From the IMG/VR virus record IMGVR_UViG_2608642293_000001, positions 44,874 through 108,873 of that record: 64,000 nucleotides of DNA. The stretch is one strand, 5' to 3'. Under the pieces are notes generated by a model, which made no database searches, was not told the origin of the DNA, and saw only the letters and a list, made by a program, of their open reading frames with translations. Made by a program: the position numbers and the translations under genes. Positions 13,821 through 14,401 of this stretch are shown here, piece after piece (position 1 is the first letter of the stretch; the number at the start of each line of letters is the position of its first letter). The stretch comes from a virus (taxonomy: Duplodnaviria; Caudoviricetes).

Positions 13821-14246
13821 TCATAGAATATTATATTCTTTTAATAACTTATATTTATCTCTGCTTACATTATTAGAACCATTTTCCCAACTGCACCAAG
13901 CTGTAATGCTTATATTAGTGAGATTACATACTTCCTTTATAGATAAGTTATTTTGTTTTCGATAGTTTAATAACTTTTCACTAGAGTTATTTGTTTCCTC
14001 CAAATATGTATCGTAAAAATATTTCGTATCAAGATTGAAGTGAAGAGCTAATTTTTGTGAGATTTCTCGTCCAGGTAATTTTCTACCTAATTCAATATCT
14101 TTTATACATGATCCTTTACTAAAACCAACTATTTCAGCCAATTTATCTTGAGTTAGGTCATTTTTTAATCGATGAAATTTTAACTTATCACCTATAGTTT
14201 TGCCAAAATCAAACATATTAATTTTATATGTAGTTAGAATGTTCAT
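13821..14246 (-). CDS. Tandem double XRE-HTH protein at prophage 1 terminus
   Basis: Two HTH units (LTQDKLAEIVG..IKDIELG; LSIKEVCNLTNISITAWCSWENG); ATG lies in the junction. Confidence 0.75.
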   Translation of the reverse strand: MNILTTYKINMFDFGKTIGDKLKFHRLKNDLTQDKLAEIVGFSKGSCIKDIELGRKLPGREISQKLALHFNLDTKYFYDTYLEETNNSSEKLLNYRKQNNLSIKEVCNLTNISITAWCSWENGSNNVSRDKYKLLKEYNIL

Positions 14247-14265
14247 GGATTTCCTGTTGCATCTG
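14225..14265. other. Attachment junction between cotJC and prophage 1 (crossover near CCATG, ~14244)
   Basis: cotJC frame ends at AAT CCA TG|A; phage-type sequence beyond. Confidence 0.7.
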
Positions 14266-14401
14266 TATAAAATACTGCTTTTCTATGATCAGCATAATGC
14301 CCAGCAAGTCCTGCTTTTTTTATCTCTTCTATAGTTGCATTTTCCATAAGTTGATATACCATTGTAGCAATTATTTCTACATGGGCCATTTCTTCTGTTC
14401 C
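14243..14401 (-). pseudogene. cotJC: Internal fragment of spore-coat manganese catalase CotJC, flanked by two prophage junctions
   Basis: Translates GTEEMAHVEIIATMVYQLMENATIEEIKKAGLAGHYADHRKAVFYTDATGNP*, matching the CotJC core pattern (DIGTEE.AH.E.IATMVY.L...AT.E....AGL..HY..H...FY..A.G.P). Confidence 0.88.

Follow-up and report, generated by a model that had tools for sequence, protein, structure and literature searches.

The closest described counterparts of the locus analysed here are elements that interrupt genes of differentiating cells. In C. difficile, the recombinase of the skin element is sigmaA-driven and made constitutively, and a 72-amino-acid factor under the control of sigmaE and SpoIIID limits excision to the mother cell (PMC5025042). 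SPbeta, which lies in spsM, employs the same recombinase in the lytic cycle and in sporulation (SprA/SprB), the gene of the factor being preceded by a sporulation promoter (PMC4191935, PMC5499854). The C. botulinum prophage yin interrupts yabG, a coat-related member of the sigmaK regulon; both the small factor and the SigK promoter assigned to it are putative, and excised circles were detected (PMC10747680). The gene cotJC is listed among the targets of phage and transposon integration, with reference to Abe 2013 (bioRxiv 10.1101/2021.11.22.469490), and in Laceyella sacchari cotJC contains a skin-like element (bioRxiv 10.1101/2022.02.25.481979). Multiply interrupted nif genes occur in heterocystous cyanobacteria (PMC4874684), and in Calothrix sp. 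NIES-4101 nifBHDK is divided into 13 parts, all elements being removed in the terminally differentiated cell (PMC11249958). Here we describe a 64,000-nucleotide (nt) stretch of an IMG/VR provirus record, called the window in the following, in which a 159-bp piece of the coat gene cotJC lies between two different prophages of a Clostridium host. The gene is probably divided into three pieces, and intact cotJC in this record would depend on the excision of both prophages.

The window comprises the last 64,000 nt of the 108,873-nt record (G000), a window coordinate being the record coordinate minus 44,873; the record is cut at gene ends on both sides. The cotJC gene of genome G120, with 189 codons (L088:1315-1884), served as the reference for the intact gene. 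The genus survey included one genome per Clostridium species, 130 genomes with a few restricted ones left out, of which 123-128 were scored per search, and a wider CotJC scan covered 72 genome loci. Five contigs of the sequencing run X1, which probably stems from the same sample as the record and does not represent independent sampling, were compared with the intact G120 locus L088.

The middle piece of cotJC and the two prophages

14240 to 14401, minus strand: middle piece of cotJC, codons ~63-114 of 189, with a TGA at 14243-14245 created at the junction
14392 to 14397, minus strand: core of site A, CAGAAG on the gene strand, cotJC nt 191-196; the attB identity continues here to 14401
14244 to 14251, minus strand: core of site B, AATCCATG on the gene strand, 8 nt, cotJC nt 337-344
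1 to 14243, plus strand: right-hand 14.2 kb of prophage 1, the whole element being ~59 kb (record nt ~48-59116)
14402 to 64000, plus strand: prophage 2, at least 49.6 kb, with terminase, portal, head and endolysin genes and cargo genes to the window end; its right end and junction are not reached
Record nt 1-1686, left of the window: rec1, large serine recombinase of 561 amino acids (PF00239 6e-37, PF07508 1.4e-12, PF13408 7.1e-16)
14377 to 16056, minus strand: rec2, large serine recombinase of 559 amino acids (PF00239 2.7e-36, PF07508 9e-16, PF13408 9.4e-15)

On the minus strand, translation of 14222-14440 yields 52 open codons between 14401 and 14246 (GTEEMAHVEII...TDATGNP) that include an EExxH motif and are followed by a stop. 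The peptide scores 32.4 bits (cut-off 27) for positions 53-95 of the Pfam family Mn_catalase (PF05067), and no other part of the 108,873-nt record matches this family. The family score together with orthology to cotJC assigns the piece to the CotJC/Mn-catalase proteins, and the cotJA-cotJB-cotJC operon is seen in relatives. In an alignment with nt 187-342 of G120 cotJC, 153 of 156 nt are identical and identity is lost within a few bases on either side; the corresponding value for C. cibarium cotJC is 131 of 162 nt. The host-derived span begins at 14240 or 14246 and ends at 14401, the range at its left end being due to the 8-nt core of site B, which is common to phage and host. The gene is cut at nt ~190 and ~340. 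An initial annotation made from the letters of the DNA had proposed a sharply bounded cotJC fragment of 52 residues with EExxH and no internal stop, which the translation, the PF05067 match and the G120 alignment bear out. It had also taken both neighbours of the piece for phages, in agreement with the PHROGs matches to terminase, portal and major head protein found on each side.

In prophage 1 a tape measure protein was matched in addition to these three, and in prophage 2 the matches comprise terminase (33015-34829), portal, major head protein (38828-39781) and endolysin (57505-58290). Terminase, portal, major head protein and a lysogeny module identify both elements as temperate tailed phages, with lysin having been scanned for in prophage 2 only. 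Each carries a site-specific recombinase gene at one end, beside the junction, and both recombinases possess the domain set of large serine recombinases (Resolvase, Recombinase and Zn_ribbon_recom), which for rec2 confirms the earlier identification of such an enzyme at one end of the piece. The two recombinases are 38% identical to each other, and comparison of the prophages at the DNA level revealed eight short matches only, the longest of 1,548 nt at 86.7% identity; they are different phages. No named phage is a relative of either one, as judged from the best recombinase identities among sequenced phages, which amount to 36.8% for rec2 and 44-47% for rec1.

Both ends of prophage 1 bear the core AATCCATG, which the intact G120 gene also contains, and joining the two junctions at this sequence restores the frame ...TGNP/WTATY.... 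In the minus-strand reading of record nt 1 to ~47, cotJC resumes in frame with the tryptophan codon that follows ...TGNP, and tblastn at this left end matched CotJC residues 113-128 with 87.5% identity (E-value 6e-6). The whole 3' piece with 90 nt of downstream DNA is contained in a 9.7-kb X1 contig (L088 1651-1974; 27 substitutions); the sole indel reported lies past the stop codon, and none is in the coding part. For site A, CAGAAG is the only stretch common to both junctions of a 7-kb element in G044, the record of prophage 2 holding the recombinase-side junction only; by this comparison CAGAAG is the predicted crossover region of the rec2-clade recombinases. The proposal that two different recombinases use two separate sites in cotJC is upheld by the low identity of the enzymes and the position of the two cores.

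A chimeric contig join could in principle have placed a cotJC piece between two unrelated phages. The 1.5-kb module that the prophages share at 86.7% identity is of the kind that breaks short-read assemblies, and X1, which probably represents the same data as the record, has a contig that ends about there. That contig, 43.8 kb in length and made by a separate assembler (Logan), nevertheless includes this middle piece, its loose ends being exactly the two phage flanks seen in the window, although it stops at about the holin-endolysin module. Each junction type is found singly in other species at the identical nucleotide, and the site B core is duplicated at the ends of prophage 1 with the gene frame resuming there. 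An assembly artefact is thus extremely improbable.

Nor is it at all credible that one of the phages carries a captured cotJC fragment, for example beside attP, and that the locus has a single true insertion. This explanation draws on the frequent presence of a duplicate of the target gene's end in temperate phages that encode tyrosine integrases. Serine recombinases, in contrast, need a short core only, and the cores here measure 6-8 nt. The piece is 98% identical to the host alleles of G120, G004 and G021 and ends exactly at the two cores used in relatives with single insertions, and no such fragment was seen in relatives of either phage at the loci examined. The structural reading of the locus is highly probable. 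That the 159-bp stretch is the middle third of a host cotJC isolated by two temperate phages which integrated independently is likely from the sequences, and the statement of the initial annotation that an intact gene needs two excisions is true by geometry.

Recurrence of the two sites in Clostridium

Occupation of one site alone recurs in the genus. Site A is filled in G044, G037, G072, G049, G047, G076, G035 and G021, site B in G104, G062 and G109. Relatives of rec2 with at least 61% identity were found in 9 of 124 scored genomes, and in all seven loci for which flanking DNA is available they directly border cotJC at codon 62-65, the remainder of the gene being intact; in G021, cotJC adjoins on the neighbouring contig, and the relative in G113 lies at a contig end and is not judgeable. 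Seven weaker relatives of rec2 (41-46% identity) do not reside beside cotJC. In complete genomes, inserts at site A that are framed by two intact gene pieces measure 7.1 kb in G044, where phage structural genes are missing, 58 kb in G037 and 41 kb in G072, the other half of the gene being free of stops. At site B, both cotJC pieces are intact around a 37-kb insert in G104 and around a 7.9-kb non-phage element in G109, and those of G062 are on two contigs. G008 and G048 display a neighbourhood like that of the site-B elements; G120 and G004 have an intact cotJC. Sites A and B are two recurrent hot spots in Clostridium, served by one recombinase clade each, site A by that of rec2 and site B by that of rec1, and the elements residing there include non-phage cassettes of as little as 7 kb and prophages of up to 58 kb.

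Simultaneous occupation of both sites was not encountered in any further genome of the genus survey or in the wider scan of 72 loci, in most of which full-length CotJC is intact. Among the remaining loci of the scan, the gene in L003, a contig of a metagenome-assembled genome (MAG), breaks off at codon 113 in a site-B-like junction close to the contig end. In L057, from a distant Clostridia MAG, a cotJC homologue (10001-10378) starts at about codon 64, which is the position of site A, with non-coding DNA upstream and no recombinase within 10 kb upstream. The genes in L037, L041 and L056 are cut by contig ends. G053 (L108, G053:C50:1-9500) contains the 5' piece, a small protein of the kind described below and a shortened recombinase of 533 amino acids, with no 3' piece in the locus and a second cotJC-like match on another contig; it looks like a decayed copy.

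Two further observations concern the distribution of these elements. The G109 element, which occupies positions 1440-9300 of locus L107 (G109:C8:9500-20000), likewise encodes a small protein and a recombinase, and motifs recognised by eye in its cargo presumably belong to a cellulose-synthase-like glycosyltransferase (QxxRW) and to one protein each of the EAL and GGDEF types. In the dairy metagenome X3, a contig departs from the intact reference at site A (L088 position 1498), its letters from there on agreeing with the recombinase-side junction of the 7-kb G044 type; elements of this type also occur in environmental samples.

A small protein common to both element clades

17660 to 17842, plus strand: candidate recombination directionality factor of prophage 2, 60 amino acids, small-protein family; open frame from 17591
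Record nt 3095-3259, left of the window: candidate directionality factor of prophage 1

Beside the recombinase, the 7-kb element of G044 and prophage 2 share one small protein (58 and 60 amino acids, 38% identical, E-value 3e-6). In all five site-A genomes tested, the best match to this protein in the whole genome falls inside the element, and by alignment the site-B elements carry a related protein. A profile search gave a single member for either prophage of the record and likewise for G021, G062 and G104; altogether, each of the 12 elements examined has one member, of 54-63 amino acids. In the genus as a whole, 25 of 124 genomes contain the family (29 matches), including all nine rec2-clade genomes as well as G109, G053, G062, G104, G008 and G048. 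The genes are often less than 6 kb from a recombinase gene, and several lie a few kb away from recombinases that belong to other clades. From this distribution we infer that the small protein is a candidate recombination directionality factor.

In most of the elements, the candidate gene has a promoter motif of the mother-cell type in front of it. The motif scanned, AC-N16/17-CATAnnnTA with eight scored positions, is the sigmaK-type consensus. It is present in full about 30 nt before the ATG of the candidate factor, followed by a ribosome-binding site, in 7 of the 12 elements, namely those of G049, G037, G047 and G044 at site A and prophage 1, G062 and G104 at site B, and with seven of eight positions at the homologous place in G072 and G109. 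In prophage 1 it lies at record nt 3041-3067, just 5' of the candidate gene. Random 80-nt windows of the record contain all eight positions in 42 of 20,000 cases and at least seven in 5.2%, and strict hits number 34 in 576,740 nt of background sequence and seven in the whole record. The positive control was the cotJ operon, which is expressed in the mother cell in B. subtilis: seven of the eight loci that hold the region upstream of cotJA have the strict motif there. In prophage 2, the positions of the motif look mutated when aligned by eye with the G049 homologue, and a sigma-70 scan of window 17100-17900 yielded four sites against 6.2 expected. A loose sigmaE-like match before the prophage 2 gene was rejected as it overlaps the ribosome-binding site.

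Selection on split alleles

Over codons 65-186 of cotJC, the ratio of nonsynonymous to synonymous substitution rates (dN/dS) of alleles split at site A in the Clostridium beijerinckii-like group is 0.02-0.08, in the same range as in pairs of intact genes, which supports the view that the split genes are still functional. Between G044 and G076, the synonymous distance of cotJC (0.445) matches that of the recombinase genes (0.458), which fits a long co-residence of element and gene; other pairs disagree in these distances, so that transfer also occurs.

Developmental excision or passive lysogeny

In the mechanism that we propose, the recombinase would be made constitutively and the candidate factor only in the mother cell, where the element would excise precisely and cotJC would be rebuilt in a terminal cell, as with skin or SPbeta. 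In the present record, intact cotJC would then depend on both excisions. On the available analysis, it is somewhat probable that the element family as such excises developmentally and thereby rebuilds cotJC. That both prophages of this record are excised in the mother cell by orthogonal recombinase-factor pairs, so that cotJC is spliced from three pieces of DNA, is advanced tentatively and seems rather unlikely; a working AND gate of sporulation in this very strain is likewise rather doubtful. Since prophage 1 has the promoter motif and prophage 2 does not, the locus may be a two-input system, a case in which a newcomer phage blocks the restoration of the gene, or a knock-out of cotJC.

The most serious rival is passive double lysogeny, in which two phages occupy preferred sites in a dispensable coat gene, developmental excision does not take place and cotJC is knocked out; the gene would be restored only via ordinary induction or curing. 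In its favour, both elements look like complete, recent prophages, and a distant paralogue (33-38% identical) exists in the four relatives checked (G004, G037, G044 and G104), and C. difficile mutants in cotJC-like genes are reported to have no gross coat defect (PMC11222575). Opposed to it are the strict motif in prophage 1 and six other elements, with a chance expectation of ~0.03 over 12 windows, the 7-8-kb non-phage elements, in which recombinase and small protein are retained and the gene pieces are intact, and the strong purifying selection on split alleles. Passive lysogeny appears somewhat doubtful on this evidence.

A number of results weigh against developmental excision at this locus, and some of them speak at the same time for passive lysogeny. 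The first group concerns the 5' piece. Only one Mn_catalase match exists in the record, and the 5' piece of cotJC is not in it, nor is the far (right) junction of prophage 2, the record ending at a gene end. The initial annotation had predicted both flanking pieces; the 3' piece was indeed located to the left, beside rec1, at the end of the record and whole in X1, whereas the 5' piece was found neither in the record nor in the five X1 contigs, which leave cotJA, cotJB and cotJC codons 1-61 uncovered, a gap in contig coverage that is no proof of absence. The conservative nature of serine integration implies that the 5' piece should exist. Searches from the right end of the window contributed little: its last 60 nt had no match in viral contigs and none in metagenome contigs, the relatives of its last gene in IMG/VR (31-41% identical, seven loci) were uninformative, and for the DNA of 61900-64000 the matches, present in 13 of 124 genomes, were short and dispersed and in no case adjoined cotJC.

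The second group concerns the state of the gene in the species. In another run labelled as the same species, the RNA reads extend over cotJC without interruption and show the X1 allele, and no loose end at site A or B appeared among the RNA matches listed (24 of 50). An uninterrupted, transcribed gene is therefore the normal state of the species and the split is specific to the strain, a point that also favours passive lysogeny, as do the failure to see the 5' piece in X1 and the G053 locus, whose missing 3' piece indicates that not every such locus is maintained. The third group concerns the promoter motif and the selection analysis. The seven elements with the strict motif correspond, by shared ancestry, to ~3-4 independent lineages. 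Before the prophage 2 factor the best match has six of eight positions, a level reached by 49% of random windows, and no strict motif is present on either strand of window 13001-20000; the lack of the motif in prophage 2 is what passive lysogeny would predict. The dN/dS values give no dates for the insertions. Finally, the small protein has no match to a Pfam family (three members scanned) and no relative in sequenced phages, and a PHROG match was obtained for one of nine members, with an E-value of 0.0044.

Other genes and features of the two prophages

13821 to 14246, minus strand: double helix-turn-helix (HTH) gene at the right end of prophage 1 (PF12844, 59.5 bits)
16085 to 16561, minus strand: ImmA/IrrE-like peptidase of the prophage 2 lysogeny module, same strand as rec2 (PF06114, 22.7 bits)
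16576 to 17133, minus strand: HTH repressor of the prophage 2 lysogeny module, same strand as rec2 (PF01381, 60.7 bits)
17238 to 17594, plus strand: Cro-like HTH gene, the first of the divergent early operon of prophage 2 (PF01381, 49.5 bits)

A homologue of the double-HTH gene is contiguous with cotJC in G104 (76% over 417 nt) and in G062. Its ATG is situated within the core of site B and is kept in the phage circle, and the purine-rich stretch just 5' of the ATG is derived from cotJC only in the integrated state (14244-14260). The rec2 frame extends 25 nt into the cotJC piece, so that its last 8 codons consist of cotJC DNA in another frame, and both the rec1 and the rec2 frame cross the attachment core and end in cotJC DNA read in another frame (14377-14401; record nt 1-47). 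The last few C-terminal residues of the recombinases consequently differ between the integrated and the excised state.

The 1,548-nt stretch common to the two prophages is a holin-endolysin module, present in direct orientation at 862-2408 and 56745-58291; homologous recombination between the two copies would remove about 56 kb, including the cotJC middle piece. A strict motif of the mother-cell type also occurs at 7732-7758 on the plus strand, just before a ParM-like gene in the cargo of prophage 1 (ATG near 7792), and part of this cargo may be expressed in the mother cell.

Significance and comparison with known systems

The classic example of 'active lysogeny' is a prophage that interrupts a sporulation gene and excises in the mother cell. 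What sets the locus apart is that one small coat gene offers two separate recurrent landing sites to two recombinase clades and that both may be occupied simultaneously. Complete phages and cassettes of 7-8 kb carry the same recombination units, and a conserved small protein with a mother-cell-type motif provides a concrete candidate for the missing directionality factor. If both prophages are excised in the mother cell, the locus would be the first case among endospore formers of a developmental gene reconstituted from three pieces by two inputs, the 159-bp stretch serving as a 'DNA exon', and the small proteins would form a new class of directionality factors that are wired to sporulation and common to two recombinase clades. 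The arrangement raises the question of whether a single cell activates two orthogonal excision systems at the same time and how the host is affected when an incoming phage that lacks the sporulation promoter keeps the resident element from restoring the gene. Genome engineering could also make use of such orthogonal pairs of serine recombinase and directionality factor, whose attachment sites are derivable from the loci.

Interruption of cotJC is already in print; a spore gene in three pieces was not found in the literature searched. The search yielded no spore-former gene split by two elements and no account of two cotJC sites or of the small protein; sites, recombinase clades and Clostridium or double cases may be given in Abe 2013 or in supplementary tables. 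In the described cases that were found in spore formers, one element resides in each gene.

The Calothrix nif genes are alike in that one gene set is cut by several elements under the same AND logic; phylum, cell type and recombinases differ, and the events are demonstrated there and predicted here. The skin element in sigK of B. subtilis and C. difficile (recombinase CD1231, factor CD1234 in the latter) is likewise an element with a large serine recombinase in a sporulation gene of the mother cell. The cotJC elements resemble it in their small family-specific protein with a sigmaK/E-type motif and in their 7-8-kb non-phage versions. They differ from it in the target, cotJC, and in having two sites and two recombinase clades, with both sites occupied in the present record; the small protein lacks detectable similarity to the named factors, and their excision is predicted. 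With SPbeta the locus has in common that a full, apparently active prophage splits a gene of the spore envelope, but SPbeta is one element at one site, whereas here a second, unrelated prophage without a promoter motif is integrated ~146 nt away. The interruptions of cotJC in print are single ones. Compared with yin, a single insertion in one strain, the cotJC sites recur across many species.

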